Below, piece after piece: positions 12,306 through 52,988 of a stretch of 64,000 bases of DNA; positions within the stretch are counted from its first letter, which is position 1, and every line of letters begins with the position of its first letter. The notes under the pieces were generated by a model. It saw nothing but the letters and a program-made list of their open reading frames with translations, searched no databases and was not told the DNA's origin. The position numbers were made by a program, and so were the translations under genes. Source of the stretch: an uncultured Ilyomonas sp. (GTDB taxonomy: Bacteria > Bacteroidota > Bacteroidia > Chitinophagales > Chitinophagaceae). The DNA is taken from NCBI GenBank assembly GCA_964249755.1, contig CAXUDB010000002.1:548267-612266 (forward strand), in the 5' to 3' direction.

Positions 12306-12396
12306 CGACTTACATTTTGTTCTGCCCCTAACGGAATCTATTGGTAAACATAGAACATTGTGCTGCTGTCAGCTTGATGTATGAAATGAAAGTAAC

Positions 12397-13428
12397 ATGG
12401 CAATTTTACACAACCGCATTAGCAGCGAAGAACTGAAGCAGCGCCTGCTTCAAGAGACGGAAAAGCGCACTACGCTTAGCTTCTACCGGTATTTCGACAT
12501 TCAAAATCCGTTAGAGTTTCGCAATTTTCTTTACAAAGAATTGGATGAGCTTTCTGTTTTTGGCCGCATTTACATTGCAAACGAAGGCATCAATGCGCAG
12601 GTGAGTGTGCCCGAGAAAAACTACGAAGCTTTTCATCATTTTTTAGAATCGGTAAACGGGTTGCAAAACCTGCGGTTGAATGTTGCAGTGGACGATGATG
12701 GCAAATCGTTCTGGGTGTTAAAAATTAAAGTGCGCGATAAGATTGTAGCTGATGGTATTGCCGACGAAACATTCAGCATGAATAACAAGGGACGGTATGT
12801 AAATGCTGCAGAGATGAATGACTACCTACAGCAACCCGGCACAGTAGTAATTGACATGCGCAATCACTACGAATATGAAGTGGGGCATTTTCAAAACGCT
12901 CTGGAAGTGCCGTCCGATACATTCCGGGATCAGCTACCAATGGCGGTTGATATGCTGAAAGGCAAAGAAGAAAATAATATCATTATGTATTGCACCGGTG
13001 GCATCCGTTGCGAGAAAGCAAGTGCATATCTTTTGCACAACGGTTTTCAAAATGTATATCACTTGGAAGGTGGCATTATTAATTATGCAAAAGAGATAAA
13101 AGAACAGGGCTTGAAAAGCGGGTTCATTGGTAAAAATTTTGTGTTCGACAACCGGCTGGGCGAACGGATTACAGAAGATGTAATAGCGCATTGCCATCAA
13201 TGCGGAAAGCCTTGCGATACACACATCAACTGTAAGAATAATGGCTGCCACCTGCTGTTTATTCAATGCGATGATTGTGCAACAAAATATGACGACTGTT
13301 GCAGTGCTGAATGTAAAGAAACTATCCATTTGCCTTTGGAGAGGCAGGCTGAAATAAGAAAAGGAATTGACAAGGGAAGAAACGTGTTTAATAAATCAAA
13401 ATTCAGGTTACGCCCGAAGTTAGGGTAA
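12397..13428 (+). CDS. trhO: tRNA uridine(34) hydroxylase / rhodanese-related (YceA)
   Basis: '[13 protein letters not shown]', '[13 protein letters not shown]', '[12 protein letters not shown]', 'FVFDNR', Cys-rich C-terminus. Confidence 0.88.
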
Positions 13429-13488
13429 TAAAAAGGCGGTATCTGTGCGAATACAAAGCTGGCTTGTCATAACTTTCCCCTTTATGAA

Positions 13489-14922: not shown

Positions 14923-14952
14923 CTCTTCCGTGTTCGTTTGTGGTTGCTTTGT

Positions 14953-15654
14953 TTATAATGAAGCAGCAGGGTCAGCCATTTCAATTTTTTCTATCCTGCC
15001 ATCCATCAGGTGAATGATGCGGTTGCCGTAAGCTGCATTTTTTTCGCTATGCGTTACCTGAATGATGGTTACACCTTCTTCGGCATTCAGCTTTTTGAAT
15101 AAATCCATAATATCCTCGCCCTGCTTTGAATTCAGGTTACCCGTCGGTTCATCCGCCAGTATTAGTTTTGGGTTGGCCACCAATGCCCTTGCAATGCCCA
15201 CCAATTGTTGCTGACCACCTGAAAGTTGCGTAGGAAACAGGTCTTTTTTGCCTACAATATTAAAGCGGTCCAAAATATCGGAGACAATAGCTTTTCGTTC
15301 TGACGATTTTAAATTTTGATAGATGAGTGGTGTTTCGATATTTTCGAAAACAGTCAGTTCGTCTATTAAATGATAAGCCTGAAACACAAAACCGATATGC
15401 GATTTATAAAGCTGTGAACGTTGTTTTTCTTTTAAAGAAAATACATCCTGGTCGCCGAAAAAATATTTGCCTTCCGATGGCTCATCCAGCATACCGATGA
15501 TGTTTAAAAGGCTCGATTTTCCCGAGCCGGATGGACCCATAATGGAAATGAACTCACCTTCTCTTACGCTAAGCGTGATGTCTTTTAAAATGAAGGTGCG
15601 GTTGCCACCAATGGTAATCCATTTGGAGAGATGCTGTATGTCTATTAAAGCCAT
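14953..15654 (-). CDS. ABC transporter ATP-binding protein (MacB/LolD-like)
   Basis: Walker A GPSGSGKS, LSGGQ, 'ADEPTGNL', H-loop 'VTH'. Confidence 0.92.
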   Translation of the reverse strand: MALIDIQHLSKWITIGGNRTFILKDITLSVREGEFISIMGPSGSGKSSLLNIIGMLDEPSEGKYFFGDQDVFSLKEKQRSQLYKSHIGFVFQAYHLIDELTVFENIETPLIYQNLKSSERKAIVSDILDRFNIVGKKDLFPTQLSGGQQQLVGIARALVANPKLILADEPTGNLNSKQGEDIMDLFKKLNAEEGVTIIQVTHSEKNAAYGNRIIHLMDGRIEKIEMADPAASL

Positions 15655-15684
15655 GATGATGAATATTTAATTGCTGCAAAGTAA

Positions 15685-15700
15685 CCAACGGTTGTGCCAA
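15685..15700 (-). promoter_or_regulatory. Sigma-54-like -24/-12 motif upstream of the ABC ATPase
   Basis: Minus strand TTGGCAC-AACCG-TTGG vs consensus TGGCAC-N5-TTGC (one mismatch). Confidence 0.4.
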
Positions 15701-15751
15701 GGTGCGAAACCCTTTGCCCTATTGGGTTTCAGCCTTGTATAGCCATTCCTC

Positions 15752-15767
15752 TGTACGAAAGCGGACA
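15752..15767. promoter_or_regulatory. Palindromic TGT-N10-ACA operator/UAS
   Basis: tgtacgaaagcggaca, followed by a partial copy tgtacggatttgaatg at 15773-15788. Confidence 0.45.
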
Positions 15768-15869
15768 CCTGTTGTACGGATTTGAATGGGTAAGAATGAG
15801 CAATGAATTAGGCAGGTTGAAAAAATGTTTTTATTATTGGGTGAAACAGACAGTACACAGAAGAACAGA

Positions 15870-16862
15870 ATGAACATAGGAAACATAAAACTGCCCGACT
15901 TTTCCTTGCTGCTCGCACCGATGGAAGATGTGAGCGACCCACCTTTTCGCGCCGTGTGCAAAGCCAACGGTGCCGATTTGATGTACACAGAATTCATCAG
16001 TAGCGAAGGGCTGATACGTGATGCCATTAAAAGCCGGCAGAAGCTGGACATCTATGAAGAAGAACGGCCCATCGGCATACAGATATTTGGCGGCGATGAA
16101 GAAGCAATGGCAATGAGTGCCCGTATTGTGGAAGCGGTCAATCCCGATCTGGTGGATATTAACTTCGGCTGCCCCGTAAAGAAGGTAGTGTGCAAAGGCG
16201 CTGGCGCTGCGGTATTAAAAGATATTGACCTGATGGTGCGGCTTACCAAAGCAGTGGTGCAAAGCACAACCAAGCCGGTAACGGTAAAAACACGTTTGGG
16301 TTGGGATGAGGATTCAAAGAACATTGAAGAGGTGGCTGAGCGCTTGCAGGATACGGGTATTCAGGCACTTGCTATACACGGGCGCACCCGCGCGCAGATG
16401 TATAAAGGCGAAGCTGACTGGAAGTTGATAGCAGCCGTGAAAAACAATCCGCGCATCTGCATTCCTATCTTCGGTAACGGCGATATAGACAGCCCGCAAA
16501 AAGCGCTGGAATATAAGAACCGTTATGGCATAGATGGTATTATGATTGGACGTGCTGCCATTGGTTATCCCTGGATTTTTAATGAGATTAAACACTATTT
16601 TCAAACCGGCGAAGTTCTTGCTCCGCCTACCATTCAGCAAAGGGTAGAAGTGATCCGGCAGCATTTGTATAAATCAGCAGAATGGAAAGGTGAAGTGCTT
16701 GGCGTTCTGGAGATGCGTCGCCATTATACTAATTATCTGAAGGGCTTCCCCAATATTAAAGAGTTCCGGCAGAAGCTGGTGAATCTATCATCGCTATCGC
16801 TTATTAATGAAGTGTTGGATGAACTGGAATATCATTATTCAGGAGCAGAAATGACATTATGA
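15870..16862 (+). CDS. dusB: tRNA-dihydrouridine synthase
   Basis: 'LAPMEDV', 'NFGCP', 'KTRLGW', 'HGRT', 'GNGDI', 'IGRAA'; start moved to ATG 15870. Confidence 0.9.
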   Translation: MNIGNIKLPDFSLLLAPMEDVSDPPFRAVCKANGADLMYTEFISSEGLIRDAIKSRQKLDIYEEERPIGIQIFGGDEEAMAMSARIVEAVNPDLVDINFGCPVKKVVCKGAGAAVLKDIDLMVRLTKAVVQSTTKPVTVKTRLGWDEDSKNIEEVAERLQDTGIQALAIHGRTRAQMYKGEADWKLIAAVKNNPRICIPIFGNGDIDSPQKALEYKNRYGIDGIMIGRAAIGYPWIFNEIKHYFQTGEVLAPPTIQQRVEVIRQHLYKSAEWKGEVLGVLEMRRHYTNYLKGFPNIKEFRQKLVNLSSLSLINEVLDELEYHYSGAEMTL

Positions 16863-16935
16863 AGAAGCGGCTGAATCGTTTTATAAAGAATTATATAGCG
16901 CCATAATTTTTGCCGGAAAGCAAGACTGCAACGCA

Positions 16936-17682
16936 TTATTGATTTGCAACTGAACTGATATAGACCGGGTCATCAGGTTTTGTAACATCATACAACCGGA
17001 TGCCATCGCTGACATAGCAAATCAAAAGATTATCATATACAATTGCATCTTTAAAGTCGGCTTCCGCTATTGTTTTCTTTATCGTTTGTTGTTTTACATC
17101 AGTCGCGTCTATAACACTTAATCCTTCTTCACCACGGCACACATATACCATCTTTCCATTCAGCGCCAGCCCGCCGGGTGTTGACAGCTCCAGGGTAGAG
17201 ATTAAAACCGGTTTAGTAAGGTCGAGTACATCGTAGGTGTATAAGCCATCGGTAACAGGTCCGCAGGGCGTGCCGCCTTTAAGGGTTACAAATGCGAAAG
17301 AATCATTGGCTACCACCGGGTCGCAGCTTCTGAGATGTTGAGCCTGACCCAGCAGCTTAGGTTTTGCCGGATCGGTCAATGAATAGATGAACATGCCGGT
17401 AGAAGAACCAAGAAACAGGTTGTTGTCATACGAAAAAATGGTCTCGATATTCCAGGATACATACACCGGATCTTTTGCAACCGGTGCGCCGTTATGAGTA
17501 ATATCAAACACTTCTATATTGCCATTACTGGCTACATAAAGGTAATTGTTCACGATCACAAACCGGGCTAATGAACCACCCGTTCCAACCGTACTGCCAT
17601 CGCTACTGTTAGTGCTGTTGCTGTCTTTTGAACAGGCAAAGAGGCAAATTAAAAAGAAAAAAATAAAAATCGCTGGTTTCAT
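16936..17682 (-). CDS. LVIVD-repeat lipoprotein
   Basis: Lipobox 'FAC', 'GTGGSLARF.IVNNYLYV', repeated 'DVTKPD/SLTDPAKP' units. Confidence 0.75.
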   Translation of the reverse strand: MKPAIFIFFFLICLFACSKDSNSTNSSDGSTVGTGGSLARFVIVNNYLYVASNGNIEVFDITHNGAPVAKDPVYVSWNIETIFSYDNNLFLGSSTGMFIYSLTDPAKPKLLGQAQHLRSCDPVVANDSFAFVTLKGGTPCGPVTDGLYTYDVLDLTKPVLISTLELSTPGGLALNGKMVYVCRGEEGLSVIDATDVKQQTIKKTIAEADFKDAIVYDNLLICYVSDGIRLYDVTKPDDPVYISSVANQ

Positions 17683-17685
17683 AAG

Positions 17686-18261
17686 TTATGGTTTATAGCA
17701 GTAAGACACAACTGAATCTTTTACCCATTTTACAATCACTGAATCGGAATAGAACTTTGCACATTCATAATAACCCGATGAGTCGGGCTGCTCCCAGCTA
17801 TGTGGCATACCGGAATCGCCATAGAACACATTGCGGGTACGACTGGTGATGGTTGGTTTTGTGAGATCGGAAATGTTGATCGAAATGAGATCGTAATAAT
17901 TGTTCGTGTAAAGTATATTTCCTTTGATAGAAATTTCTTCGCAGCCCGGCACTTCTATGAAACCAATGCGGTGCGCCGTTGATGGATTGGTATTGTCGGT
18001 GATGTGAATTCCCTTGCCAACTTCACATTGATAAATCAAGTTGTCTTTTACATAAATTTTGCCTGCGTTCACTACAGGTCTTGCGTCATCATAAGCGATA
18101 GTACGGTACGAGGTATCCAAAGCATACACCGGTTTCCAGGCCCATCTTTTGGGTTCTGTGTATTCGGTGTAGGGTTTATTAAAGAAGCCCCAGCAGGACG
18201 ATAAGCTGCAAACGAAGAAGATAAGTAATGCAGTCAACAGGGAGTGTAAAAGATGTTTCAT
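17686..18261 (-). CDS. Hypothetical lipoprotein with LVIVD-like repeats
   Basis: Lipobox 'SSC', 'AGKIYVKDNLIY..E.GKGIHI.DN.NP'. Confidence 0.7.
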   Translation of the reverse strand: MKHLLHSLLTALLIFFVCSLSSCWGFFNKPYTEYTEPKRWAWKPVYALDTSYRTIAYDDARPVVNAGKIYVKDNLIYQCEVGKGIHITDNTNPSTAHRIGFIEVPGCEEISIKGNILYTNNYYDLISINISDLTKPTITSRTRNVFYGDSGMPHSWEQPDSSGYYECAKFYSDSVIVKWVKDSVVSYCYKP

Positions 18262-18422
18262 ACAGAGAGCGATGTTTGCGTTAGAGGCGGGTTTCCCTGC
18301 GCATGATGCCTGTTGCTGTAAATAAAATTTTAGGTTGTTTTCTTGAATAGACGGTTCTTACCATCTGTTAAGCTGTAAGCACTTAATTTAGTGCCTTCAT
18401 CATACCACACAAAACATAGCTT

Positions 18423-19997
18423 ATGAGTTGGCGATTGTACAACCAATGTTTATGGGTACAACGGATGTTGTTAGCTATAACAACAACGATAATGACCTTT
18501 ACCTCTTATAGTCAAACGGCATCAGCTACTTATCAGCCACCCTTTTTTAGAGATAGTAACCGGCTTCAAAATATAGAGAAAACTTACCCGCTTGTTGACA
18601 GTCTTTTTCAGGCTTATGCTAGTAAAAATCATTATCCCGGGATAGCTTTTGGATTGGTAGCAGATGGTAAATTGGTTCATTCTAACGGGTACGGGTTTAC
18701 CGATGCGGAGAAGAAAATTCCGGCGACTCCTTCTTCTCTTTTTCGCATCGCTTCGATGAGCAAAAGCTTTACGGCGATGGCTATTTTAAAGCTGCGCGAT
18801 GAAGGCAAACTTAAGCTTGATGACCCGGCTTATCTCTACATCCCCGAGATGAAGAATTTACACTATCTTACCACAGATGCTGCACCCATTACAATTAGAC
18901 ATTTGCTTACCCATGCCGCTGGTTTCCCGGAAGATAATCCCTGGGGCGACCGCCAGTTGGAAGATACGGATACGCAGCTTATTGACCTCATAAAAAAAGG
19001 TGTTTCTTTTTCAATGGTTCCCGGCTCGGCTTACGAATACAGCAACCTTGCGTTTGCCCTGTTGGGTCATATTATCACTACAATCTCCGGCAAGCAATAC
19101 GAACAATACATTTCCGAAAATATCCTTCATCCACTCCGCATGAAGAACACAAAATGGGAATTTACACAGGTTGCTCCGCAACAATTAGCGCATGGCTATC
19201 GCTGGTTAAATAACGGTTGGGTTGAACAGCCTCTGCTGCATGATGGCTCATATGGTGCTATGGGTGGATTGATTACGTCTATAGAAGATTTCAGCCGCTA
19301 CATCGCATTGCATTTGAGTGCTACGCCGCCTGCAAATGATAAAGAAACCGGATCAATTAAACGAAGCTCACTGCGCGAAATGCAACAACCCTGGAATATT
19401 AATACTTTATCGCCGCACTATCAGTTTCCTAATGGCAGCGAGTGCGCCACGCTCACTGCTTATGGCTATGGGCTGAGATGGATGAAGGATTGCGATAACA
19501 AAGTGTATGTTGGTCATAGCGGTGGTTTGCCCGGCTTTGGCAGCGAGTGGAAGATTTTACCGGAATATGGCATCGGCATTGTTTCGTTTGCCAATCTCAC
19601 GTATGCTGGTATGAGTATTATCAATTTGCAGGTGCTTGATACCATTATTAGTATGGCGCATTTGCAGCCACGACAATTGCCACCTTCCGCTATTTTACAA
19701 CAACGGAGAGATGAATTAATAAAGATATTGCCTGCCTGGAGCAACGCGCAGCAAAGCGGCCTCTTTGCCGAAAACTTTTTTATGGATTATCCCATTGATA
19801 GTTTGCGCAGCGAAGCCAATGCAATTTTTATCGGCGCAGGCAAAGTTGTAAGAATAGAAGATGTTGTTCCGCTCAATCAATTGCGCGGCAGTTTCACTAT
19901 TGTGTGTGAAAAGAAAAATATTGTTGTTCAGTTCACCCTAACGCCTGAAAATCCTCCGCTCATTCAGGAATATCATATCAAGGAAGTGGAAAAGTAG
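18423..19997 (+). CDS. Serine hydrolase (beta-lactamase class C/AmpC-like family)
   Basis: SxxK 'SMSK', 'LLTHAAG', 'YSN', 'GHSGG'; exact start uncertain. Confidence 0.88.
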   Translation: MSWRLYNQCLWVQRMLLAITTTIMTFTSYSQTASATYQPPFFRDSNRLQNIEKTYPLVDSLFQAYASKNHYPGIAFGLVADGKLVHSNGYGFTDAEKKIPATPSSLFRIASMSKSFTAMAILKLRDEGKLKLDDPAYLYIPEMKNLHYLTTDAAPITIRHLLTHAAGFPEDNPWGDRQLEDTDTQLIDLIKKGVSFSMVPGSAYEYSNLAFALLGHIITTISGKQYEQYISENILHPLRMKNTKWEFTQVAPQQLAHGYRWLNNGWVEQPLLHDGSYGAMGGLITSIEDFSRYIALHLSATPPANDKETGSIKRSSLREMQQPWNINTLSPHYQFPNGSECATLTAYGYGLRWMKDCDNKVYVGHSGGLPGFGSEWKILPEYGIGIVSFANLTYAGMSIINLQVLDTIISMAHLQPRQLPPSAILQQRRDELIKILPAWSNAQQSGLFAENFFMDYPIDSLRSEANAIFIGAGKVVRIEDVVPLNQLRGSFTIVCEKKNIVVQFTLTPENPPLIQEYHIKEVEK

Positions 19998-32715: not shown

Positions 32716-34212
32716 TTATTTAACAACATACTCCCTCAACTCATCTGCGATCTTCCTGTCATTACTCAGGCGCGGCAGCTTGTTCTGTCCACCCAATTTA
32801 CCAATTGATTTCATGTAATTAATAAAACCATTCTTCTGCACCGGTCTTATCTTCAGCTTCTGCAAAATATTGCCGCTGATTAAGTCATCATAATACACAT
32901 TTTTCTTCCGCAAATTAGCATCTACTTTTTCTGCAAAAGAGAGAACATCAATTGGTGGTTGTGCAAACTCAATAAACCATTCGTGAAAGCTTTTGCCTTC
33001 GCCCTGCTGCACCATGGGCGCAACCGTAAATTCAACCACATGAATATTTTCTTCCGCGGCGGCTTTCATTAAGGCGGCTTCTACTTCTTCTCCTATCACA
33101 TGCTCGCCAAAGGCGGAGATATAATGCTTGGTTCGGCCAGTTACTATTAAGCGATAGGGATTCGTGCTGACAAACTTCACCGTATCTCCAAGATCGTAGC
33201 CCCAAAGCCCGGCGTTATTGTTAATAATGAGCGCATAGTTTTCCCCTACTTTCACGTCTTTCAAATAGACTCGCGTGTGTACTTCTTTTTCCACTTCATT
33301 CGCCGGGATAAACTCATAAAAAATCCCCGAATTTGTGTTCAGCAGCAAGCCCTGGTGTTCTATCGTGTCCTGGAAAGCAAAAAAGCCTTCCGATGCCGGG
33401 AACGTTTCAATTGAATCAACCGGTTTGCCAATGGTAGCTAGCAACTTGGCTTTATATGGCTCGAAGTTTACGCCGCCATACACCATCACAGAGAAAGAAG
33501 GAAACAGGTCTTTGATTTCTTTGCCGCTTACTTCTGTCAGCCGGTCAAAATACATCTGCATCCACGGCGGAATACCACTAATCAGCGTCATGTTCTGGTT
33601 CGCTGTTTCTTTCACAATGGCATCCAGCTTTGTTTCCCAGTCTTCAATGCAATTGGTTTCGTAAGAGGGTAGCTGATTGGTGCGTAAATAACGCGGCACA
33701 TGGTGGTTTACAATGCCACTAAGCCGCCCGGTGGGAATGTCTGCCACGCGATCCAGTTCGGGCGAGCCGCTTAGAAAAATCATCTTGCCATTGGTAAAAT
33801 CAGCATTGCCCCGTTGCGCTATGTAGCACAATAGTGCATTACGCGCTGTGTCTATATGGTTATCTATCGAGTCTTTAGAAATTGGAATATACTTCACACC
33901 ACTGGTAGTGCCGCTGGTTTTGGCAAGATACAAGGGCTTACCCTTCCATAGCACGTTGTGTTTGCCTTCTTTTATTTTTTCTATGTAAGGCTTCAGTTTT
34001 TCATAATCGCGCAGTGGCACCTGTTGTTTAAAATCATCGTAGGTTTTGATGGTGCTGAAATGGTGATCCTTTCCGAATTGTGTGTCTTTCGCTGTCTTGA
34101 CGAGTTCGGCTAAAATGGCTTCCTGGTCTTGCACGGCAGTTGCCATTCCCTTCTGAATCTTGTTATAAATATAATTGGCAAACGGCTTTGCCAACGAAGA
34201 TTTTATGCTCAT
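32716..34212 (-). CDS. GH3 (auxin-responsive-like) acyl-adenylate/amido synthetase family
   Basis: 'KTSGTTSG.KYIP', 'ASEGF', 'GLWGYDLGD', 'GGQNK.PRL'. Confidence 0.9.
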   Translation of the reverse strand: MSIKSSLAKPFANYIYNKIQKGMATAVQDQEAILAELVKTAKDTQFGKDHHFSTIKTYDDFKQQVPLRDYEKLKPYIEKIKEGKHNVLWKGKPLYLAKTSGTTSGVKYIPISKDSIDNHIDTARNALLCYIAQRGNADFTNGKMIFLSGSPELDRVADIPTGRLSGIVNHHVPRYLRTNQLPSYETNCIEDWETKLDAIVKETANQNMTLISGIPPWMQMYFDRLTEVSGKEIKDLFPSFSVMVYGGVNFEPYKAKLLATIGKPVDSIETFPASEGFFAFQDTIEHQGLLLNTNSGIFYEFIPANEVEKEVHTRVYLKDVKVGENYALIINNNAGLWGYDLGDTVKFVSTNPYRLIVTGRTKHYISAFGEHVIGEEVEAALMKAAAEENIHVVEFTVAPMVQQGEGKSFHEWFIEFAQPPIDVLSFAEKVDANLRKKNVYYDDLISGNILQKLKIRPVQKNGFINYMKSIGKLGGQNKLPRLSNDRKIADELREYVVK

Positions 34213-44028: not shown

Positions 44029-44102
44029 GGATTGGTAGTTCAGTTGGTTAGAATGCTGCCCTGTCACGGCAGAGGTCGCGGGTTCGAGTCCCGTCCAGTC
44101 CG
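44029..44102 (+). tRNA. tRNA-Asp (GTC)
   Basis: Acceptor ggattgg/ccagtcc, anticodon arm ctgcc-ctGTCac-ggcag, T-loop gttcgag. Confidence 0.96.
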
Positions 44103-44103
44103 C

Positions 44104-44133
44104 AAAAGCTCCTTACATAAAGGAGCTTTTTTT
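44104..44133 (+). terminator. Terminator after tRNA-Asp
   Basis: aaaagctcctt...aaggagctttttt. Confidence 0.85.
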
Positions 44134-44327: not shown

Positions 44328-44662
44328 TCGTTGTAACAGGTAAGCTCTGCTTCGCAGAGGGCATTTGCCGTGTCGAAACCTCCGGCAATAACATCACTGC
44401 TCCCGTAAAGAGCATCGAAAGGCATAAACATCTTATCGCAAGCCCCGGCTTCCGCATCGTACTTACGTAAAGAGCATCGTAACTTCCATAAAGAGCATCG
44501 AAAAGGTCACAACCGGCATTGCAGTGTCCGTTCGCGGCATCGAAACCGCCGCGCGTCGCATCGCAGTCGGTAGCTAATTCATCGAAACCGTCGTAAAGCA
44601 TATCGAAAAGTCTGTAAACAGCAATGGCGTTTCCGGCATTCACTTCGCCGTCCGCGACAGCG
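44328..44662. repeat. 21-bp periodic tandem array (about 15 degenerate units, core gcatcg)
   Basis: gcatcg-like cores at 44349, 44370, 44391, 44412, 44433, 44454, 44474, 44495, 44516, 44537, 44558, 44579 and 44600; one 20-bp unit. Confidence 0.85.
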
Positions 44663-44910
44663 AAACCGAAAAGCCCCTCGAAACCGCCACCATTTCTATT
44701 GTTGGCTTCAAAGAGCCATTCTCTGTCAACAAAAAGGGTGTGTTTGATATCAAGGTGCCCAAAGCCACCTACAACTTCACCGTCACGGTTCTTGGCTATG
44801 ATACGTATCAGGGTACCGTTGTCCTCGATGCCAACTTTATGCGCCGTGCTGAAGTCTTCGCCAAAAAAGCCACCCCGCCGCCTCCTAAAGCAATAAAAGC
44901 CGCAAAATAA
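44578..44910 (+). pseudogene. Start-less gene end encoding a carboxypeptidase-regulatory-like (Cna-B/prealbumin-like) domain
   Basis: Hand translation '..GIHFAVRDSETEKPLETATISIVGFKEPFSVNKKGVFDIKVPKATYNFTVTVLGYDTYQGTV..KAAK*'; C-ending codon bias; strong terminator follows; in-frame TAA at 44575. Confidence 0.65.
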
Positions 44911-44911
44911 A

Positions 44912-44949
44912 AAAGAGAGCCGAGCCTATTTACAGGCTCGGCTCTCTTT
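44912..44949. terminator. Strong (bidirectional) terminator
   Basis: aaagagagccgagcct...aggctcggctctcttt 16-bp stem. Confidence 0.88.
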
Positions 44950-45012: not shown

Positions 45013-46431
45013 TCATAGCGTTCCTAAATACCTGACAGCCGTAACCGAAGGAAAGAAGAAATAAGCACCGCCTTTGGTATAAACAAACTTTTTTAAACCC
45101 GTGATGCATTGGCTCACAGGTTCATTTTGTATCGTAAAATTCTGCTCTTGGTTGTGGTCGGGTATTTCCCTCACACCCACAATCGGGTCGGGATCATTAT
45201 ACAGTTCTTTAACTCTTGGATAATTCGCCCAGGTATATTGCACAAATTCATATTGCCTCGAAATATCCGCGTTGAAACAGCCAAACAGCAAACCTACTTC
45301 TGCTTCCGGCGTATGGTGCAGCGGCGAACCTTCGTAGGGTTCGCCATAAAATCGTCCCCTGCGCATAATACGATGGCGGCGGGATAATTGCAGCGATTCC
45401 TTCACGGTATTATCTTCAAACGTATCACGCGGGTTACACCGGCGCAGGTGCGAGCCAAAGGGGCAATTCAAGCCGTCTTTATCTATTGCATGGTAATTAA
45501 AGTCGTTGTCATTGCTTTCTTCCACAGAATGTGGATCGGCAATGGGAAATTTGGCTACCGGCGCGCCGCTGGGCCAACGCCCCATCATCTTCGAAGCCAG
45601 CCAGATGCTTTGATCTACGTTGATACTATCATCTTCATTCTTTGTTTTTTCATTCATAAAATTCCAGAACGTATCTACATCCTGAGCCAGTTGCCGCAAC
45701 ACGAAATAAGACCCGTTTTTGCCAATATCCTTTCTGCCCGAGCCGGACGCATCTGCGGGCAACAGGTTGACATTCCCCTGCTCTTCGGCTAATAAAGGCG
45801 TATCTGGCAGCACGCCATATTCATTGGCATAGCCCAAAATAAACTCTCCCGCGCTTACATAATCTGTTGCCGGACCGGTCTTTCCGCTGCCCGTAATAAT
45901 AGGTTGCGAGATGCCATCCCGAAACCCAAAATGCTCTTTATTGTAGGGAAGCGTCTGTCCGTCAAGATTGATAATTTCGGTTACACCAGACGCCTCAAAT
46001 TGCTGTTTCAAACTATCGTAAAAATGGAGAGCGGTGGTTTGATCTTTTCCAAACACCATGAGCAGGATATGAACTGGTGAATTGTTCGGTCCGCCCCAGC
46101 GCCAGTTAGCGGGTGTGCTACTGTCATAATCGCCCAGCAGCCTCTGGCGGTGTGGCGTGGTCATGCCTTCCCTAAATTCCCGTAAGAAAAACTGTACGTT
46201 GCTGTTGCTCATGCCCAGCGCCCGAAGCCCTGGCGCCGTAAAAGCAATATTCAGGCAGGTTTCGGTGGGATGATGAACAGCATGGGTAAGGTTGTCGCTT
46301 ACTGAACTGATAAACGATTTGGCGCCCGCCGGCTCTATCACCTGCAGCAGCACATAGCGTGAATACATCATGTGCTTATAGCCCCGGATGACATATCCCT
46401 GAATGTCTTCGAATTCTAACGTTTCGGTCAT
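45013..46431 (-). CDS. DyP-type heme peroxidase
   Basis: 'EHFGFRDGISQP' (GxxDG), 'PFGSHLRRCNPR', 'RRGRFYG', 'RQYEFVQ'. Confidence 0.92.
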   Translation of the reverse strand: MTETLEFEDIQGYVIRGYKHMMYSRYVLLQVIEPAGAKSFISSVSDNLTHAVHHPTETCLNIAFTAPGLRALGMSNSNVQFFLREFREGMTTPHRQRLLGDYDSSTPANWRWGGPNNSPVHILLMVFGKDQTTALHFYDSLKQQFEASGVTEIINLDGQTLPYNKEHFGFRDGISQPIITGSGKTGPATDYVSAGEFILGYANEYGVLPDTPLLAEEQGNVNLLPADASGSGRKDIGKNGSYFVLRQLAQDVDTFWNFMNEKTKNEDDSINVDQSIWLASKMMGRWPSGAPVAKFPIADPHSVEESNDNDFNYHAIDKDGLNCPFGSHLRRCNPRDTFEDNTVKESLQLSRRHRIMRRGRFYGEPYEGSPLHHTPEAEVGLLFGCFNADISRQYEFVQYTWANYPRVKELYNDPDPIVGVREIPDHNQEQNFTIQNEPVSQCITGLKKFVYTKGGAYFFFPSVTAVRYLGTL

Positions 46432-46433
46432 AA

Positions 46434-47702
46434 TCAGAATCGTTTTAAGAATTGAGCTGCTTCCTTTTCAGTTAAATTTTTCGACAGCTCATTCCGGATA
46501 AAAGTATTGTTGATAATGTTCTTAATGGACAGGTGTGGGTAAGCCGAATACCATACCTGTGTCGGGATTTCGTATCGCCGGCTCCAGGCTAAAAAATGCT
46601 CTTCGTCATAAGCGCCGCCGGTAAATAAAAAGTGCGTCTTTGGAAAGTTGACCGTATTGCTCCAGATGCCTGTTAAGCCCCAGCCCGACTTGTCTATAAA
46701 ATCACCCAAATACTGTTGCCAGCTGCCATCGAAATTGCTGAAGAAAAGCATGTGTTTTCCATCATCCAGCATTGTCCATCGCGCAAAGTGTATGGTGGGT
46801 ATGCCCATGAGTTTGCCCTGCACAAACAAGAACTTAATCAGCCCTTTGGCAAACAATAAAAAAGCTTGTACGGTAAGGAGTCTTACCCTGCCTGGCTTCA
46901 TCACCAGTAGCTGTGTAAACTGGTTTTGGTATTCCAAGTCTTCATATTCTTCCAGGCTTCTCATGTGCTCTTCCTTCACCTGGCTTGGCATCAGGGGTTC
47001 TGGGTTGTCATTCACTTCGTAAAAAAAATGAACGATGAGTACCCAAAGGATAATCACCGGAGAAAGTACGAGCAAAATCACACCCAGCAATACCATGCCC
47101 GGCCAGCTCACGCCGGGTATGATATTGTGTTGTTTTGCCCAGGCAAAATCATGGTTTGAAAAGATATATTGCTGAACAGCTTTATGAATATCAGATGCGC
47201 TTTTATTCTTCCAGTTGCCGGTGCTTAAAAAGCTGCGGATGGCATTTCTCAATTCGCTTTCCTGCCTAATATCGGTGAGACTTCTCCCCGGCGCACCTAC
47301 GTAAAAAGCCGAAGGCTTGGCACGCCACCGTTTAAGGTAGGCTTTGCGGCTTTCTGTAGTGCGCTCACCGGGCCGCGGGTAATCTATACAGTGCTCATAC
47401 AACTGGTCTGTAAAAGTGCCGAGAAAACGGATGTCTGAAAGCGCATTGTAATGTTCTTCTCTCGGTCCATCAAACACAGAAGCAAAGATGAGCCGCGAAG
47501 AAAGAATATTCTCAAAGCTCTGGTCGGTTTCTTTTTTATCGCTGAAAATCCAACGGGCAAAATGAATGTTGTTAAGATTTTCAAACGGCTCTTTCTTATC
47601 CTTTTCAAGGTCTGACTTTAATTGCAGCAACAAGCGAGACAAAGTATCTTCATCTCCCTCTTTTACCGGCGTTACCAATGTCAATTCGTTTTGAACACTC
47701 AT
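46434..47702 (-). CDS. DyP-associated membrane protein with a duplicated 'HFARW' domain
   Basis: 'IHFARW..LIFASVFDG' and 'IHFARW..MLFFSNFDG' flank one TM segment. Confidence 0.8.
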   Translation of the reverse strand: MSVQNELTLVTPVKEGDEDTLSRLLLQLKSDLEKDKKEPFENLNNIHFARWIFSDKKETDQSFENILSSRLIFASVFDGPREEHYNALSDIRFLGTFTDQLYEHCIDYPRPGERTTESRKAYLKRWRAKPSAFYVGAPGRSLTDIRQESELRNAIRSFLSTGNWKNKSASDIHKAVQQYIFSNHDFAWAKQHNIIPGVSWPGMVLLGVILLVLSPVIILWVLIVHFFYEVNDNPEPLMPSQVKEEHMRSLEEYEDLEYQNQFTQLLVMKPGRVRLLTVQAFLLFAKGLIKFLFVQGKLMGIPTIHFARWTMLDDGKHMLFFSNFDGSWQQYLGDFIDKSGWGLTGIWSNTVNFPKTHFLFTGGAYDEEHFLAWSRRYEIPTQVWYSAYPHLSIKNIINNTFIRNELSKNLTEKEAAQFLKRF

Positions 47703-47725
47703 TCTGAAAAATTGATAGGTAAAAC

Positions 47726-48643
47726 TTATTCTGTTTTGGGTGCTGGTTGTGTGAGCTGGATGTAGCTCAAAGCGCCCTTTGCGCCCGAGGCAACAAGGTT
47801 GCTCATGTCTTGGTCGGTAAGTTTAAAATCGGTAGCCAAAATGCCGAGATCGTCAATGATTACAGTGCGGTAAACCTCGTCGCCGTCTTCATCAAAATCC
47901 TGATCCTGAACGTCCAATATAGATTCAAATAAATGCCGGGCAAAATGCAGAAAAGTATCAAAACCCAGCGCATGTTTTTCCTTGTCCTGCTCCTTTGTTC
48001 GTAAGTAAAAACCAAGCGATTCGGCATTGGCTTCGGCAGGTGTATTGTAGAACCTTGCATCATCGAAAAAAGAAAGCGGGTAGTTAAACATCAACCCGCC
48101 ATCTACATAAATATCATTGTCGGGTATCGAATTCGAAAACTGCCAGGCTTTAAAGAAAATGGGGATAGACATCGAAGCTCTTACGGCTTCGGCTATCAGC
48201 GCACCCGGTGTTTTATCAGCAGAAAATTCAGTTACGGAATGCGTGTTCAGGTTGGTGGCGAATACATACAAATCAAGGCAACCCGCCTTTTTTGCATCGG
48301 CAAATGTAGAATCCCCGCTCAATCCTTTACCGGAGTTTTCCATCAGGTGAATCATCATATCTACAATGTATTGCCCGCTGTGCAAGCCGTAATGTGTGGC
48401 GATTCCGATAGGATTAAAGGCTTCCTCGAACTGCATAAAATTGATGCCTTTCATGATTGTATAGATATGGTCTATGCTATATCCCAATGCATACATGGCG
48501 GCAACGAGTGCACCGGCCGATGTACCGGCCACGCGCTGTACATTGCCCAGCAAATTCCTCTTATCCAGCTCCTGCAATGCGCCCACAAAGGCAATCCCTT
48601 TCACGCCGCCGCCTTTGAAAGCCAGATTTTTTATCATACGCAA
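47726..48643 (-). CDS. Patatin-like phospholipase
   Basis: 'GGGVKG', 'GTSAG' nucleophile, 'DGG'. Confidence 0.92.
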   Translation of the reverse strand: MRMIKNLAFKGGGVKGIAFVGALQELDKRNLLGNVQRVAGTSAGALVAAMYALGYSIDHIYTIMKGINFMQFEEAFNPIGIATHYGLHSGQYIVDMMIHLMENSGKGLSGDSTFADAKKAGCLDLYVFATNLNTHSVTEFSADKTPGALIAEAVRASMSIPIFFKAWQFSNSIPDNDIYVDGGLMFNYPLSFFDDARFYNTPAEANAESLGFYLRTKEQDKEKHALGFDTFLHFARHLFESILDVQDQDFDEDGDEVYRTVIIDDLGILATDFKLTDQDMSNLVASGAKGALSYIQLTQPAPKTE

Positions 48644-48648
48644 AAGAT

Positions 48649-49170
48649 TTATAAATCTCCTTTATCAGCCGGGCTATTTTCAATATTCGCTTTCGCGATG
48701 AGCAAGTTTTGCTGCATATATTTTTTGAAAAACAAATCCATAAATAAGGAAACGATAACAGCCGTAAAAGCATTTTTTGCCTGGAAAGTATAAGTCCAAA
48801 CCACGTTTGTCTGGCTGCCTTCCGAAGAGAAGGAAAACTCACCGATAGCCATAGAAGCCAGGTTTTTTACGGTGCCGCTGAAATCGCTGATATGATACGA
48901 AAAAGAATCGTGTGGATGATAAGAAATCATCTCTTCCCGCAGCGTATCCCCATTGTCAAAATACAATGTTCGGCAAGCGCCCGGCATGGACCAGGGACCT
49001 TTGTGCGTCTCGTGTTTTACTACGGCATGAATGGGGCCGTACTTCTTTAAAAAATGAGTCAGCGATTCTTCTGCCGATAGATAATTAAAAACCGTTTCCC
49101 TGTCCGATGCAATGTTAATGGAAGCTTGTCTTGTAACAAGATCTTTCGATAGCGTTAGGGTTTCAGCCAT
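48649..49170 (-). CDS. SRPBCC (START/polyketide cyclase-like) family protein
   Basis: 'RETVFNYL','PGACRTLYF..GD.LREE', 'TNVVWTYTF', C-terminal helix. Confidence 0.8.
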   Translation of the reverse strand: MAETLTLSKDLVTRQASINIASDRETVFNYLSAEESLTHFLKKYGPIHAVVKHETHKGPWSMPGACRTLYFDNGDTLREEMISYHPHDSFSYHISDFSGTVKNLASMAIGEFSFSSEGSQTNVVWTYTFQAKNAFTAVIVSLFMDLFFKKYMQQNLLIAKANIENSPADKGDL

Positions 49171-49196
49171 AAAGAAAACGTTGGTAAGAAGGTCCT

Positions 49197-49649
49197 TTAT
49201 TTAACCGCAAAAATTTTATATACCACATGGCCGTCTTCGTTATAAGAGCCATAACCTAAGCCCACCGTGTTGTTCAGCCATGCATACTGTGGCGCGGTGG
49301 TTTCGAACAACGGATTGGTGCGCCAGTAATAAGAAGAAGGATCGAGGTCTTTGCCCGCCGGCGAAAACAGTTTCTGCAATGTTTGCGGATCGGCGGCGCT
49401 CATGTAGCCACTATAAGTGATGTAAACAATAGCGCCGTCATCGGCTTTAATAGCAGCTCTTACATTAATCTGGTAAGAGGTGGGCGAAAGAAACAAGCCA
49501 AACTCGCCGCCGATGGGTAATACGGTTCCGGTTACCTTGCCGGTGACGGTGCCGCCAGTAATGCCTGCCAGCACCCGCGGTCCTTCTATAAAAGGCGGGT
49601 TAAGTGTTGCGATAATCAGGAGAATTTCTTCTGCTTCTACTGTTTGCAT
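49197..49649 (-). CDS. DUF3237 domain protein
   Basis: 'ITGGTVTG...G.VLP.GG', 'DDGAIVYITY.G', 'YWRTNP.FET..PQYAWLN'. Confidence 0.85.
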   Translation of the reverse strand: MQTVEAEEILLIIATLNPPFIEGPRVLAGITGGTVTGKVTGTVLPIGGEFGLFLSPTSYQINVRAAIKADDGAIVYITYSGYMSAADPQTLQKLFSPAGKDLDPSSYYWRTNPLFETTAPQYAWLNNTVGLGYGSYNEDGHVVYKIFAVK

Positions 49650-49854
49650 GTTGGTTGGTTTTATTGATGAAATGAAGGGAAACGAAATGTGATTCTTGAT
49701 TGCTTTATGCCTTTTGCTGCAAAAGCAGCGATAACAAATATAGAAACTGATAGCGGGATTGAAGATACCGGCTGCAAATAAATTTCTATCTCCTTGCTTT
49801 TCGACAAAAGTGATAATCCGGAGTAAGCAACAGGATGGCTTTTAGTAATGAAAC

Positions 49855-50871
49855 CTAAACGGCAGTCGGCTCTGTATAAGGCTTCCCATTATGCTGGTGC
49901 CTGAATTTAGACAAGGCTTCATAAGCCTGTTTACGGGCGCGGTTAAAGCTTCCCAACGGGCGGTGTTCGGGTGATGAATGCCAGATGTCAAAAGACAGAT
50001 TATCGCCGAATTCCAATTGCTCTGCACTATCGAACACCTGTGGCGGAATCTTTATTTCTGCCAGTTTGAGGAAAGGCGAATGCCAGGCAACCGTCGGGTC
50101 TTCTATCGGCATGGCATCGGCATCGGTTTGAAACTGCACATAAAAATCAAAACGGATTTCTTTCGTGCCTAACGTTTTAGCCATATTCATCCTGAGATAG
50201 TTGTCGGCCGTTGTGTTATCTGTGAGAAGCTCATTGTCAGCCGAAGGTTTGACACAATATTTTACGGCAGTTGTATCGTTTCCAAACTGGTAAGGCTGCG
50301 TGCTGAAATAAGGAATTTGAAAAGGGTGCTGACAATGGATGTTCGACCCCAAAAGCCGCTTCAGCAAAACCCAATGTTTGGGGTTGATAAAATATTTCAA
50401 CAGTTCCAGCTTGTTCTTTGCGGTAGCGGCTTTCAGCGTTCGCCTGAACTGTTCAATATTCTTCGAAAAGAAAGTTTCGCTGCTCATCAGGAGGAAGTCC
50501 TGCGTCTGTTCAAAACGCTGGTCGTTCAGTAGCTTTTCGCCGGGCACATTCATCAGCTTGATAGCGCAGCCGCGGATGTCTTTTTTCTTATCCGGCTGCA
50601 CAATGGTATTGGCGTTGGAAAAGCGTATCCATGCAGGATAGGTAGCCGCAGTTTTAAAAATGCCGACTCGTAACTCATTGGCTAAATCCGGCAGCACCGA
50701 GAATTCAGCCCTTACGCAGCCGTGCATTTTGGTATGTACCTGCCGCAACATTTTTGTGTTGGGATATAAAGCCGTCAACTGGCTTTCCATTTCTCCGATC
50801 ATTTCTAAGATGATGGCTTCTTCGCCCGGCTCGGGGTATTCTTTGCCGGGCTGTTTGCTGGATGAATGCAT
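49855..50871 (-). CDS. Small catalase-fold heme protein (catalase-related, AOS/HPL-like group)
   Basis: 'RQVH.K.HG' distal His, 'IRFSN', 'RGCAIK', 'RPLGSFNRARKQAY' proximal Tyr; 338 aa. Confidence 0.88.
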   Translation of the reverse strand: MHSSSKQPGKEYPEPGEEAIILEMIGEMESQLTALYPNTKMLRQVHTKMHGCVRAEFSVLPDLANELRVGIFKTAATYPAWIRFSNANTIVQPDKKKDIRGCAIKLMNVPGEKLLNDQRFEQTQDFLLMSSETFFSKNIEQFRRTLKAATAKNKLELLKYFINPKHWVLLKRLLGSNIHCQHPFQIPYFSTQPYQFGNDTTAVKYCVKPSADNELLTDNTTADNYLRMNMAKTLGTKEIRFDFYVQFQTDADAMPIEDPTVAWHSPFLKLAEIKIPPQVFDSAEQLEFGDNLSFDIWHSSPEHRPLGSFNRARKQAYEALSKFRHQHNGKPYTEPTAV

Positions 50872-51050: not shown

Positions 51051-52988
51051 TTAATCAATCAGTTTTATCTTTCGCAAAAAGTCTAAGAAATATTTGTTGT
51101 TGCGCAGGTTGACGGGCATCACCGTCAGATGCGCAAAAATAGGAAGCAGTATATCATTATTGCGATAGCCTTTCTCCAGAAATTCTATAGCAAGGTCTGT
51201 CTTATCTACTGCCGCAGCGCCAATGGCAGCGCCGAACACCGAGAAATACTGCGTTTTATCGCGCTCTATAATTTCATCCATCAGCCGCAGCGCTTCTTCC
51301 CTGTTTCCGTTATGTACCTGCGCCAGCGTCATAAACCCAAGCGCCCAGGAATGCCTGCCCGAAAGGTTCAAAGCCGTATTGAGACAATCTATAGCGTTTG
51401 CCGATTGTCCCATTTCAATGAAGCACCAGCCGGCCAGGAAATAAGGCAGGAATAAAGTAGCGTCTATTTCAATGGCTTTCTTAGCCTGCTGCAGCGACTC
51501 TTCGAACTTCCGCTGCGCCAAAAAAGCCAGCCCTGTTATGTGGTAAGAGATGGCGTTGTAAGGCTCGATGGCCGTAGATTTCAGCCCTTCTTCTTCAGCT
51601 TTTGTCAAGTCGTTTTCTACAATGCTTAAATAGAAACTGTACCAGGAGTGAGCCGCCGCATAATCGGGGTTGAGCTGAATGGATTTTTTAAAGTTTTTAT
51701 TGGCGAGATACCGGTCGTTCTCATAAATGCCATAGATAAAACCCAGCGATGTATAAGGCTCATTTAAAAGCGGGTCTATGCTAATCGATCTCAGTGCGGC
51801 CTCCTTTGCTTTCGGCATGGCATCGTTGGGCGGAAGAATGCCATACAAGCCCAGTGCAGCATACGAATCTGCCACACCCGCATAGGCTTTGGAAAGTGTT
51901 GGATCAATATCTATCGCCTGCTGAAAAAACTGCAGAGCATTGGTCAGCCATCGCCCTCTTTTGTTCCAGTAATACCGTCCTTTTAAATACAATTCATACG
52001 CTTCGGTATCAGCCACCGGCACATTCACCAGCGATTTCTCGCTCTCCAGCAACGTCACTTTCAGCCTTTCTCTTACTGCCAATGCAATATTGTCCTGGAT
52101 GGCGAAAATGTCTTTCATATCGCCGTCATATTTATCCGACCAGAGATGAACGCCGTCTTCCGCGTTCACGAGATAAGTGGTGATGCGAACGCGGTCGCCA
52201 TACCGGCGGGTACTGCCTTCGAGTATGGTAGCCACACCCAATATCTCCCCAATTTTTGAAGGCGAATCATGCTTGCCCCTGAACTGGAAAGAAGAGGAGC
52301 GGCTTACGACTTTCAGGTCCTGTAACTGCGTGAGCGAGCTTAATATCTCTTCCGCAATGCCATCGCTGAAATAGTCCTGTTCGGCATCGCCGCTGAGGTT
52401 GATGAAGGGAAGCACAGCAATGCTTTTGCGAGGGATCTTTTTTGCCGGGGGCGTTGGCGCTGATGAGGCAGAAACAATGTCGCTAAGCTGAACAGTGGCA
52501 ATATTCACTTCATAAATCTGCACCGCGTCTTTTACATTTTTTAATTTTTCTTCTTTTACAAAAATGGTTTCAATGCCCTTATTGGCAATGTTTTTTTGCA
52601 CCGAATCAGATATCCAGATGCCGCCCACCGGCGCTATGGCCTGTATTCTTGCAGCGATGTTTACGCCATCGCCAAACACGTCCCCGTTTTCAAAAATCAC
52701 TTCGCTTAAATGAATGCCAATGCGGAGCGACAAGCCGGGAACGGCAGTTGTAGCCTGCTGAATGGAAACTGCCGATAAGACTGCATTGGTAACGGTAGGA
52801 AACGATGCCATGATGCCATCGCCCAGTTCTTTTATCCAGCTACCGCCATATTTTTCAATCAGCGGTTTTTGTATATCCCGGTTTTTATTCAATATAGCAA
52901 ACGCCTTTTGCTCATCATCGCCCATCAGTGCGGTGTAGCCTACAATATCCGTGAACATAACTGCAGCTAACTGGCGGTATTGTGTCAT
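51051..52988 (-). CDS. Class III adenylate/guanylate cyclase - TolB-like - TPR protein
   Basis: 'VMFTDIVGYT', 'KELGDG', 'RIGIH', 'FGDGVNIAARIQ'; 'SIAVLPF.NLS..QDYFSDG'; TPRs. Confidence 0.9.
   Translation of the reverse strand: MTQYRQLAAVMFTDIVGYTALMGDDEQKAFAILNKNRDIQKPLIEKYGGSWIKELGDGIMASFPTVTNAVLSAVSIQQATTAVPGLSLRIGIHLSEVIFENGDVFGDGVNIAARIQAIAPVGGIWISDSVQKNIANKGIETIFVKEEKLKNVKDAVQIYEVNIATVQLSDIVSASSAPTPPAKKIPRKSIAVLPFINLSGDAEQDYFSDGIAEEILSSLTQLQDLKVVSRSSSFQFRGKHDSPSKIGEILGVATILEGSTRRYGDRVRITTYLVNAEDGVHLWSDKYDGDMKDIFAIQDNIALAVRERLKVTLLESEKSLVNVPVADTEAYELYLKGRYYWNKRGRWLTNALQFFQQAIDIDPTLSKAYAGVADSYAALGLYGILPPNDAMPKAKEAALRSISIDPLLNEPYTSLGFIYGIYENDRYLANKNFKKSIQLNPDYAAAHSWYSFYLSIVENDLTKAEEEGLKSTAIEPYNAISYHITGLAFLAQRKFEESLQQAKKAIEIDATLFLPYFLAGWCFIEMGQSANAIDCLNTALNLSGRHSWALGFMTLAQVHNGNREEALRLMDEIIERDKTQYFSVFGAAIGAAAVDKTDLAIEFLEKGYRNNDILLPIFAHLTVMPVNLRNNKYFLDFLRKIKLID

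Follow-up and report, generated by a model that had tools for sequence, protein, structure and literature searches.

The window analysed here is a DNA stretch of 64,000 nucleotides (nt) from an uncultured Ilyomonas sp. (Bacteroidota, Chitinophagaceae). Its minus strand carries one instance of a widespread module. The invariant core of this module consists of U420, a protein without any family model (422 amino acids (aa) in the window, 46434-47702), and of a class V (C/D-type) DyP peroxidase (472 aa, 45013-46431). A third member, also a haemoprotein, is usually present; in the window, it is a small catalase-fold protein designated CATL (338 aa, 49855-50871). U420, DyP and this second haemoprotein very probably form one physically interacting multi-haem module. 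Its substrate may be a membrane-lipid hydroperoxide, processed on the cytoplasmic side of the membrane (tentative reading of the gene contents; probability of about 0.4).

In the window, six open reading frames (ORFs) of the same direction occupy positions 45013-50871 of the minus strand. In gene order, they encode CATL, a DUF3237 beta-barrel protein (150 aa, 49197-49649), a stand-alone SRPBCC ligand-binding protein (173 aa, 48649-49170), a patatin-like acyl hydrolase (305 aa, 47726-48643), U420 and DyP, and are separated by 205, 26, 5, 23 and 2 nt. The initial annotation, made from the sequence alone, had presented these six co-oriented genes as one system; the ORFs, their strand and the last four gaps (26, 5, 23 and 2 nt) were reproduced. 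The idea of a functional unit is borne out by about 80 genomes and by gene fusions, but the core is U420 and DyP with CATL or a cytochrome P450, not the six genes as listed. The boundaries were also misplaced: DUF3237 is lineage-specific and a gene encoding an adenylate cyclase with tetratricopeptide repeats (TPR; 51051-52988, minus strand) was omitted.

The module was examined in 80 genomic loci (one genome per species) and in several metagenomic contigs. Neighbours were scored by phmmer and by hidden Markov models built from the window proteins, and neighbouring ORFs were clustered all against all. Loci with at least 1.5 kb downstream of U420 are called informative (n = 74; the seven exceptions are contig ends). 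In all 74, a DyP gene of the same strand lies directly 3′ of U420 (gap typically -58 to +60 nt) or is fused to it. The hosts belong to Bacteroidota, Cyanobacteria, Chloroflexota, Gemmatimonadota, Actinomycetota, Acidobacteriota and Proteobacteria (Marinobacter) and, among added contexts, probably to Planctomycetota. The third member is found within 10 kb of U420 in 60 of the 74 loci: CATL in 43, P450 in 17, never both. The exact co-directional order CATL-DUF3237-SRPBCC-patatin-U420-DyP recurs in a 6.6-kb metagenomic contig (L088), whose proteins are 69-73% identical to those of the window. Uniqueness of the combination to one genome, named in the initial annotation as one half of the result that would speak against it, is ruled out by this contig. 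Most relatives carry two convergent units, patatin-U420-DyP facing cyclase-CATL/SRPBCC. Synteny is kept across whole genera, e.g. in ten Algoriphagus species. In Chitinophagales P450-type loci, U420 is preceded by a gene for a GST-like/P450 fusion and DyP is followed by one for an ABA4-like membrane protein. Eight non-Bacteroidota loci encode a protein of about 150 aa directly upstream of U420 (e.g. L071 9532-9984), with the signature AWQGKVF ... LDYS..S....IRDEIR.V.PG.YLG and no Pfam match; it was considered as a relative of DUF3237 and no relationship was found. In Flavitalea (L001), a defence-like trio (gasdermin, SIR2, nSTAND/TPR; 13182-19021, minus strand) is located right after a P450-U420-DyP-ABA4 unit.

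Members of the module are also found as single polypeptides. U420-DyP fusions occur among the representative sequences (P0193, P0197, P0223, P0253) and in Longimicrobium (L074); in Rhizobium leguminosarum, a 976-aa U420-DyP protein is followed by an EEP-family gene. One EEP-hydrolase-U420 fusion is present among the representative sequences; the EEP partner gave no matches in the PDB. One P450-U420 fusion is followed by an overlapping DyP gene. P450, U420 and DyP form a single chain in Novosphingobium aromaticivorans DSM 12444 (pNL2; WP_011907039.1, 1,443 aa; L085 4805-9136) and on a Sulfitobacter plasmid (WP_152553137.1, 1,620 aa; L086 4742-9604). The former, which follows a SARP regulator, is annotated as 'Dyp-type peroxidase domain-containing protein'; the latter, which follows a TPR protein, is annotated as 'cytochrome P450'. 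In 24 Bacteroidota loci, CATL bears a fused C-terminal SRPBCC domain (Pfam and alignment), which brings its length to about 520 aa; NCBI names these fusions 'SRPBCC family protein'. Chance adjacency of the module genes is ruled out by their recurrence and by the fusions. Since U420, DyP and P450 are fused with each other, and CATL with SRPBCC, the proteins are considered to act as one physical unit.

U420 had been described as a duplicated-domain membrane protein, and both parts of this description hold. Its N-terminal and C-terminal halves are homologous (hhalign probability 99.7%, E 1.6e-26), which reveals an internal duplication, and are joined by a single hydrophobic stretch (residues 202-228). 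Each half has an HFARW strand (46-53 and 304-311). No match was found in Pfam, NCBIfam, PADLOC or PDB sequences. The AlphaFold2 (AF2) model (predicted local distance difference test (pLDDT) 92.1, predicted template modelling (TM) score 0.90) shows two beta-alpha-beta-beta-alpha-beta halves and a long helix (200-231). The top Foldseek match is WhiE-ORFI (9lmn; probability 1.0, E 1.5e-4, TM 0.40/0.46, 392 columns), followed by the Abx(+)O decarboxylase (9ltx), then by the putative monooxygenases 3mcs and 3f44. U420 is thus predicted to be a pseudo-dimeric ABM-like alpha+beta-barrel, i.e. two ferredoxin-like halves forming one barrel. By sequence (Pfam, NCBIfam, PDB, hhalign), it falls in none of the described ABM, SchA, Cld or DyP families. 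A degenerate DyP was rejected at the sequence level (hhalign probability of 0.3% against the DyP profile).

The conserved residues of U420 cluster in its C-terminal half (His305, Arg308, Trp309, Ser322, Asn323, Ser327, Tyr331). This pattern suggests that this half holds a pocket rather than being a mere scaffold. The median length of the hydrophobic span is 27 uncharged residues, and 44 of 55 sequences carry a central Pro in it. Because the two halves are predicted to form one barrel and because haem domains devoid of signal are fused at both ends, the helix would be anchored in the cytoplasmic face, as a monotopic or re-entrant segment, instead of crossing the membrane. The family is large (>2,000 matches at 90% clustering; 2,237 clusters at 50% identity) and labelled only 'hypothetical protein' in the source databases.

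The window DyP matches TIGR01413 (E 5.6e-30; 104.8 bits, cut-off 100.5). Its best PDB match is DrDyP of Deinococcus radiodurans (8re3, E 2.7e-46, full length); fungal D-type DyPs, AnaPX and DyP2 come next. The GFRDG motif (169-173, including Asp172), the proximal His328 and the distal Arg357/358 are invariant in 17 orthologues. On these sequence features, it is assigned to class V (C/D), with a two-domain fold. Its N-terminus (MTETLEFEDIQG) shows neither signal peptide nor Tat signal by inspection and the enzyme is predicted to be cytoplasmic; none of the six proteins has a recognizable signal peptide (by inspection). In a Blastocatellia contig (L095), an encapsulin gene (Linocin_M18; 11709-12584, minus strand) is located some 2 kb away from a U420-DyP-P450 unit. 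This encapsulin is probably unrelated, since known encapsulin-cargo DyPs belong to class B. DrDyP (DR_A0145, class C) has a six-coordinate low-spin haem and is inactive with H2O2 at pH 7.5; its authors ask which event activates it (PMC10820274). The adjoining gene encodes the catalase-like DR_A0146, whose product has no catalase activity (PMC6300522). A requirement for partners or for another peroxide would be expected to produce such inactivity of both proteins.

CATL matches Pfam Catalase below the cut-off (E 2e-3; 17.7 bits, cut-off 25). A profile of 22 orthologues retrieves PDB 3e4w (E 1.2e-11) ahead of true catalases (about 6e-5). The AF2 model (pLDDT 89.6) is closest to 3e4y (Foldseek E 6.8e-16, TM 0.64/0.71, 23% identity), then to the coral allene oxide synthase (cAOS; 1u5u, E 1.5e-12, TM 0.64) and to catalases (about 1e-11); it also resembles the chanoclavine synthase EasC. 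The proximal pair Arg313/Tyr317 is invariant in alignments of 22 and of 50 sequences. The distal site is Val45-His46 (aligned to the catalase RxVHAKG motif), His being replaced by Asn in Chloroflexota, cyanobacterial, actinobacterial and Marinobacter members. The stretch matching the distal Asn of catalases and cAOS is LMSSETFF (128-135), with Ser and no Asn (inspection of the motif alignment). A monofunctional haem catalase is rejected on the Pfam score, the missing Asn and the unconserved distal His. cAOS is defined by T66, H67, N137 and Y353 and by a lipoxygenase (LOX) partner (PMC5617202). The initial annotation had likened CATL to coral and cyanobacterial allene oxide synthases and hydroperoxide lyases (AOS/HPL). 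This analogy is abandoned: CATL shares the fold and the Tyr, but has Val-His instead of Thr-His, lacks both the distal Asn and a LOX partner, and is nearer to MAP_2744c (3e4w/3e4y). The reported absence of LOX stands: none of the window ORFs that reach 400 aa or more is a LOX, each having been placed in another family, and no LOX-sized recurrent family was detected in the 80 neighbourhoods by all-against-all clustering.

The nearest solved relatives of the module P450s are ordinary CYP107-type enzymes (a CYP74-like hydroperoxide role was considered). The acid-alcohol pair of the I-helix is Glu/Asp-Thr in GST-fused P450s, Glu-Pro in short ones and Pro-Thr in triple fusions. No ferredoxin or reductase family is recurrent beside the P450s (neighbourhood clustering).

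The domain calls of the initial annotation are all recovered, DUF3237, SRPBCC, patatin and DyP by Pfam/NCBIfam and the catalase fold by profile and AF2. The patatin (Pfam E 2.9e-31, 109.6 bits) carries the motifs GGGVKG (11-16), GTSAG (40-44) and DGG (181-183), so that its catalytic dyad appears intact; its PDB matches are of the VipD/ExoU/PlpD/CapV type. In 16 Bacteroidota loci and in L088, the gene immediately preceding U420 encodes a patatin of about 300 aa, most gaps being -52 to +7 nt: patatin is translationally coupled to U420 in Bacteroidota. The window SRPBCC protein matches Pfam Polyketide_cyc2 (E 1.3e-9; 39 bits, cut-off 27.4), and aligns with residues 369-525 of the 527-aa CATL-SRPBCC protein of Olleya (L042; 32% identity, E 8e-32). 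Judging from this alignment, it is a split-off orthologue of the domain fused to CATL in other Bacteroidota. SRPBCC is a fold for hydrophobic ligands. The DUF3237 protein (Pfam E 7.7e-29) has only uncharacterised PDB matches (4pux, 3g7g, 3c5o). Its occurrence is restricted to the window, L006 and L088, and it is a peripheral, lineage-specific accessory. In L006, a metagenome-assembled genome of Chitinophagaceae, cyclase-DUF3237-SRPBCC genes (12853-15960, minus strand) are convergent to U420-DyP; neither CATL nor patatin is encoded within 10 kb and DUF3237 occupies the usual CATL position.

The gene upstream of CATL, at a distance of 179 nt, encodes a class III adenylate cyclase domain (residues 7-159) followed by a TolB-N-like linker and TPRs (645 aa). 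The domain matches Pfam Guanylate_cyc (E 6.3e-11; 42.6 bits, cut-off 21.9), TPRs are recognized by Pfam, and the motifs FTDIVGYT, IKELGDG and GDGVNIAARI, with the metal-binding Asp and the transition-state Asn/Arg residues, are present by inspection. Orthologues of this 645-aa protein (E 0 to 1e-100) are encoded 8-34 nt upstream of CATL in at least eight loci (L015, L027, L039, L042, L048, L057, L059, L062) and also beside the module in L005 and L006. In 27 other loci, belonging to Cyclobacteriaceae and many Chitinophagales, a Ser/Thr-kinase-AAA16(STAND)-TPR-GAF-cyclase protein of 1,700 aa occupies the cyclase position (e.g. L040 14776-19899, plus strand). A cyclase protein thus adjoins 34 of the 36 catalase-type Bacteroidota loci (the remaining two are short contigs); none was found in the non-Bacteroidota loci examined. 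The adenylate-cyclase/TPR gene is therefore included in the unit, as a putative regulator or sensor.

The lipid-hydroperoxide reading can be written as a series of steps. The assembly site of the proteins would be the cytoplasmic face of the membrane. Patatin would free an oxidised (or to-be-oxidised) acyl chain, which would be carried by SRPBCC and, in the window lineage, also by DUF3237. CATL (Tyr ligand, no distal Asn), or P450 in other lineages, would reduce or rearrange the hydroperoxide. At the membrane surface, the oxidant of the anchored U420-DyP pair would be lipid peroxide or hydrogen peroxide; U420 could present a lipid or a membrane-soluble reductant, or could carry out a cofactor-free oxygenation. 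Through the cyclase, the pathway would be tied to cAMP signalling. Overall, the module would turn over or repair peroxidised membrane lipids and might also yield a signalling product. A hydrophobic or lipid substrate fits the intact patatin, SRPBCC (fused to CATL in other loci) and the hydrophobic anchor of U420. The lipid-hydroperoxide reading is further favoured because CATL, which has no distal Asn, is nearer to MAP_2744c and cAOS than to true catalases, because an EEP hydrolase is fused to U420 or adjacent to it in Rhizobium, and because the P450s have neither reductase nor ferredoxin, their I-helix pair being broken in the fused and short forms.

Several points weigh against this reading. 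Outside Bacteroidota, the module has no patatin, SRPBCC or cyclase, and acyl lipids are hence not a necessary substrate of the core. Polyunsaturated lipids are scarce in Bacteroidota; singlet oxygen acting on monoenes, or the module itself, would have to be the source of the hydroperoxides. The third haemoprotein is absent within 10 kb in 14 loci, 7 of which have a truncated flank. The GST-fused P450s of Chitinophagales keep the Glu-Thr pair typical of O2-activating monooxygenases. The nearest folds of U420 are polyketide-tailoring ABM/SchA proteins, at a TM of only 0.40-0.46 on a predicted model, and its helix may be either spanning or monotopic.

The alternative that survives best, although it is rather unlikely, keeps the same complex and changes the substrate: an isoprenoid or polyene pigment of the membrane (carotenoid, flexirubin-type polyene) or a quinone (menaquinone). 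DyP and the second haem enzyme would cleave, bleach or remodel the oxidised pigment, or act as a membrane quinol peroxidase. Most hosts are pigmented and light-exposed (Algoriphagus, Cyclobacterium, Olleya, Sporocytophaga, cyanobacteria, Gemmatimonas, Pyrinomonadaceae, Deinococcus), and the core is devoid of patatin outside Bacteroidota. Plant ABA4 is linked to neoxanthin formation, and the small ABA4-like protein (PF14108) is encoded directly after DyP in 13 P450-type loci (e.g. L002 12759-13199); however, it is missing from all catalase-type loci, including the window. DyPs have been reported to oxidise beta-carotene and anthraquinones (PMC10820274), but no carotenoid or quinone biosynthesis genes are recurrent in the neighbourhoods, and the tight coupling of patatin in 16 loci is hard to reconcile with a non-acyl substrate.

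A stronger claim on lipids would make U420-DyP with CATL or P450 a membrane-anchored, lipoxygenase-independent oxylipin synthase: DyP and/or U420 would act as the dioxygenase on a membrane-derived fatty acid, the second haem enzyme would rearrange the resulting hydroperoxide, as in the fungal dioxygenase-P450 fusions, and the cyclase would read the lipid signal. This is quite unlikely; if true, it would be the first defined physiological pathway for class-V bacterial DyPs.

A generic defence against oxidative stress, in which a redundant catalase and peroxidase remove H2O2 and the other genes are unrelated neighbours, is improbable. Both haem enzymes come from H2O2-handling superfamilies, and transcription of DR_A0146 was measured among the antioxidant genes of D. 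radiodurans. However, catalase activity is lacking in this protein, and H2O2 does not support DrDyP activity at pH 7.5; CATL lacks the distal Asn, has Asn for the distal His in other phyla and is replaced by P450 in 17 loci. Fusions of SRPBCC and U420 would not be expected for simple H2O2 scavengers.

The chances are also low that the module tailors an aromatic or polyketide-like secondary metabolite or pigment, with U420 as oxygenase or decarboxylase, SRPBCC as a cyclase-like protein, P450 or the catalase-fold protein as oxidase and DyP as a phenol-coupling peroxidase. The top structural matches of U420 (WhiE-ORFI, Abx(+)O) are polyketide enzymes, SRPBCC matches a Pfam 'polyketide cyclase' family, CATL resembles the catalase-fold EasC and a SARP-family regulator adjoins the Novosphingobium fusion. 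Against these likenesses, no polyketide synthase, nonribosomal peptide synthetase or scaffold gene is present in the window or recurrent in the 80 neighbourhoods, the flanking genes are housekeeping ones (accA, iPGM, tRNA), and the synteny across a genus such as Algoriphagus is a core-genome-like behaviour.

A CBASS/Pycsar-like defence, in which a cyclase signal would activate a membrane-attacking patatin with the haem enzymes as accessories, is very improbable: patatin matches CBASS/anti-phage phospholipase models (NCBIfam E 3e-8 to 2e-11, PADLOC E 3e-13), the cyclase weakly matches PycC (E 2.9e-8, cyclase domain only) and a gasdermin-SIR2-STAND trio adjoins the Flavitalea unit, but these generic patatin and cyclase matches, for which the reading was downgraded, are far under family cut-offs (CBASS_lipase 33 bits versus 200), the other five module proteins, U420-DyP core included, match no PADLOC/NCBIfam defence model, most phyla have neither patatin nor cyclase, and the location is stable among related species rather than variable.

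Some other features surround the unit in the window. A hairpin with a 17-bp stem followed by a T-run (44912-44949, minus strand), 64 nt past the DyP stop codon, is a candidate terminator. A query for public RNA or DNA runs bearing on co-transcription listed none. A sigma-70 promoter scan gave no excess over shuffled sequences; the sigma-70 model is not appropriate for Bacteroidota. TAnnTTTG-like motifs were seen by eye 5′ of the cyclase gene and inside the 205-nt gap, which is weak evidence. The CATL-DUF3237 spacer shows no sequence conservation between the window and L088, hence no sign of a conserved RNA element. The only Rfam match over 43-54 kb is a tRNA-Asp (GTC; 44029-44103, plus strand), directly followed by a hairpin (44104-44130); this tRNA gene stands between accA and the module region. 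A CarboxypepD_reg-like open frame (44578-44910, plus strand; Pfam E 1.6e-9) has no ATG, GTG or TTG ahead of 44740 and is either a gene remnant or a gene with a non-canonical start. A 21-nt tandem repeat is found at 44454-44500; about 780 nt in that region carry no intact gene. A GH3-family protein (plant JAR1-like acyl-acid amido synthetase) is encoded about 11 kb from the module (32716-34212, minus strand); the plant GH3 family conjugates jasmonate, an oxylipin. At 10660-12186 (minus strand), the encoded protein unusually combines an APH-type phosphotransferase domain and a RapZ C-terminal domain in one chain.

The physiological substrates and roles of bacterial DyPs, especially of class C/V, are an acknowledged open question. 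The DyP clade of the module is never alone (74/74 loci): U420 always and a second haem enzyme usually accompany it, which provides a handle on DyP role. It has concrete partners and natural single-chain enzymes in cultured strains (N. aromaticivorans DSM 12444, Sulfitobacter). If the lipid-hydroperoxide reading is true, the module would be a bacterial route for handling or making oxidised lipids without lipoxygenase; it would give a function to the dark family U420 and account for the small proteins that many Bacteroidota genomes list under the names 'catalase family' and 'SRPBCC family'.

The initial annotation knew no description of this combination, and none was found in the literature searched for DyP with patatin, catalase-related proteins, P450 context or fusions. 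For this reason, and because U420 has no family model, the module is rated as being outside any described kind of system; its catalytic domains all come from known superfamilies. Its composition is matched by none of the nearest known systems. The tandem ABM/SchA-like proteins (9lmn, 9ltx, 3mcs, 3f44) share with the U420 model two ferredoxin-like halves forming one barrel. Their identity to U420 is 8-11% (TM 0.40-0.46) and U420 has no Pfam ABM match; it differs by an inserted hydrophobic helix, an HFARW/SNFDGS signature, an obligatory DyP partner and a context devoid of polyketide genes. In D. radiodurans (DR_A0145/DR_A0146; 8re2/8re3), a DyP gene adjoins a catalase-like gene, the likeness being one of gene adjacency; the motif of DrDyP is GXXDM, versus the canonical GFRDG in the window DyP. 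By analogy, this pair may lend circumstantial support to the lipid-hydroperoxide reading.

The closest solved structure to CATL is MAP_2744c, a 33-kDa protein of Mycobacterium avium subsp. paratuberculosis. Both are bacterial, stand-alone and of similar size; the sequences are still distant. Pakhomova et al. are said to have found in 2009 that MAP_2744c is devoid of catalase activity and works as a peroxidase with organic hydroperoxides as co-substrates. To our knowledge, no U420/DyP/patatin context has been described for it. The cAOS-LOX of the coral Plexaura (1u5u/3dy5) and the cyanobacterial mini-catalase-LOX resemble CATL by a small catalase core with proximal Tyr and Arg, by the absence of any expected catalase function and by fusion to another domain handling lipid. 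Identity is 15%, and the fusion partner is LOX there versus SRPBCC in relatives of CATL.

In eukaryotes, peroxidised phospholipids are repaired by PNPLA/iPLA2 or Prdx6 excision and peroxidase reduction. The module would be analogous by the association of a patatin-family lipase with a peroxide-reducing enzyme at the membrane; the peroxidase is a selenium or thiol enzyme there and a haem enzyme here, and only patatin is homologous. The fungal Ppo/linoleate diol synthases are dioxygenase-P450 proteins in which one domain makes a fatty-acid hydroperoxide and the other rearranges it, with no reductase. Their first domain has an animal-haem-peroxidase/COX fold instead of the DyP fold, and they have neither an ABM-like middle domain nor a membrane anchor. 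Like the P450-U420-DyP proteins, they carry two different haem domains in one chain and may be the nearest functional analogy.

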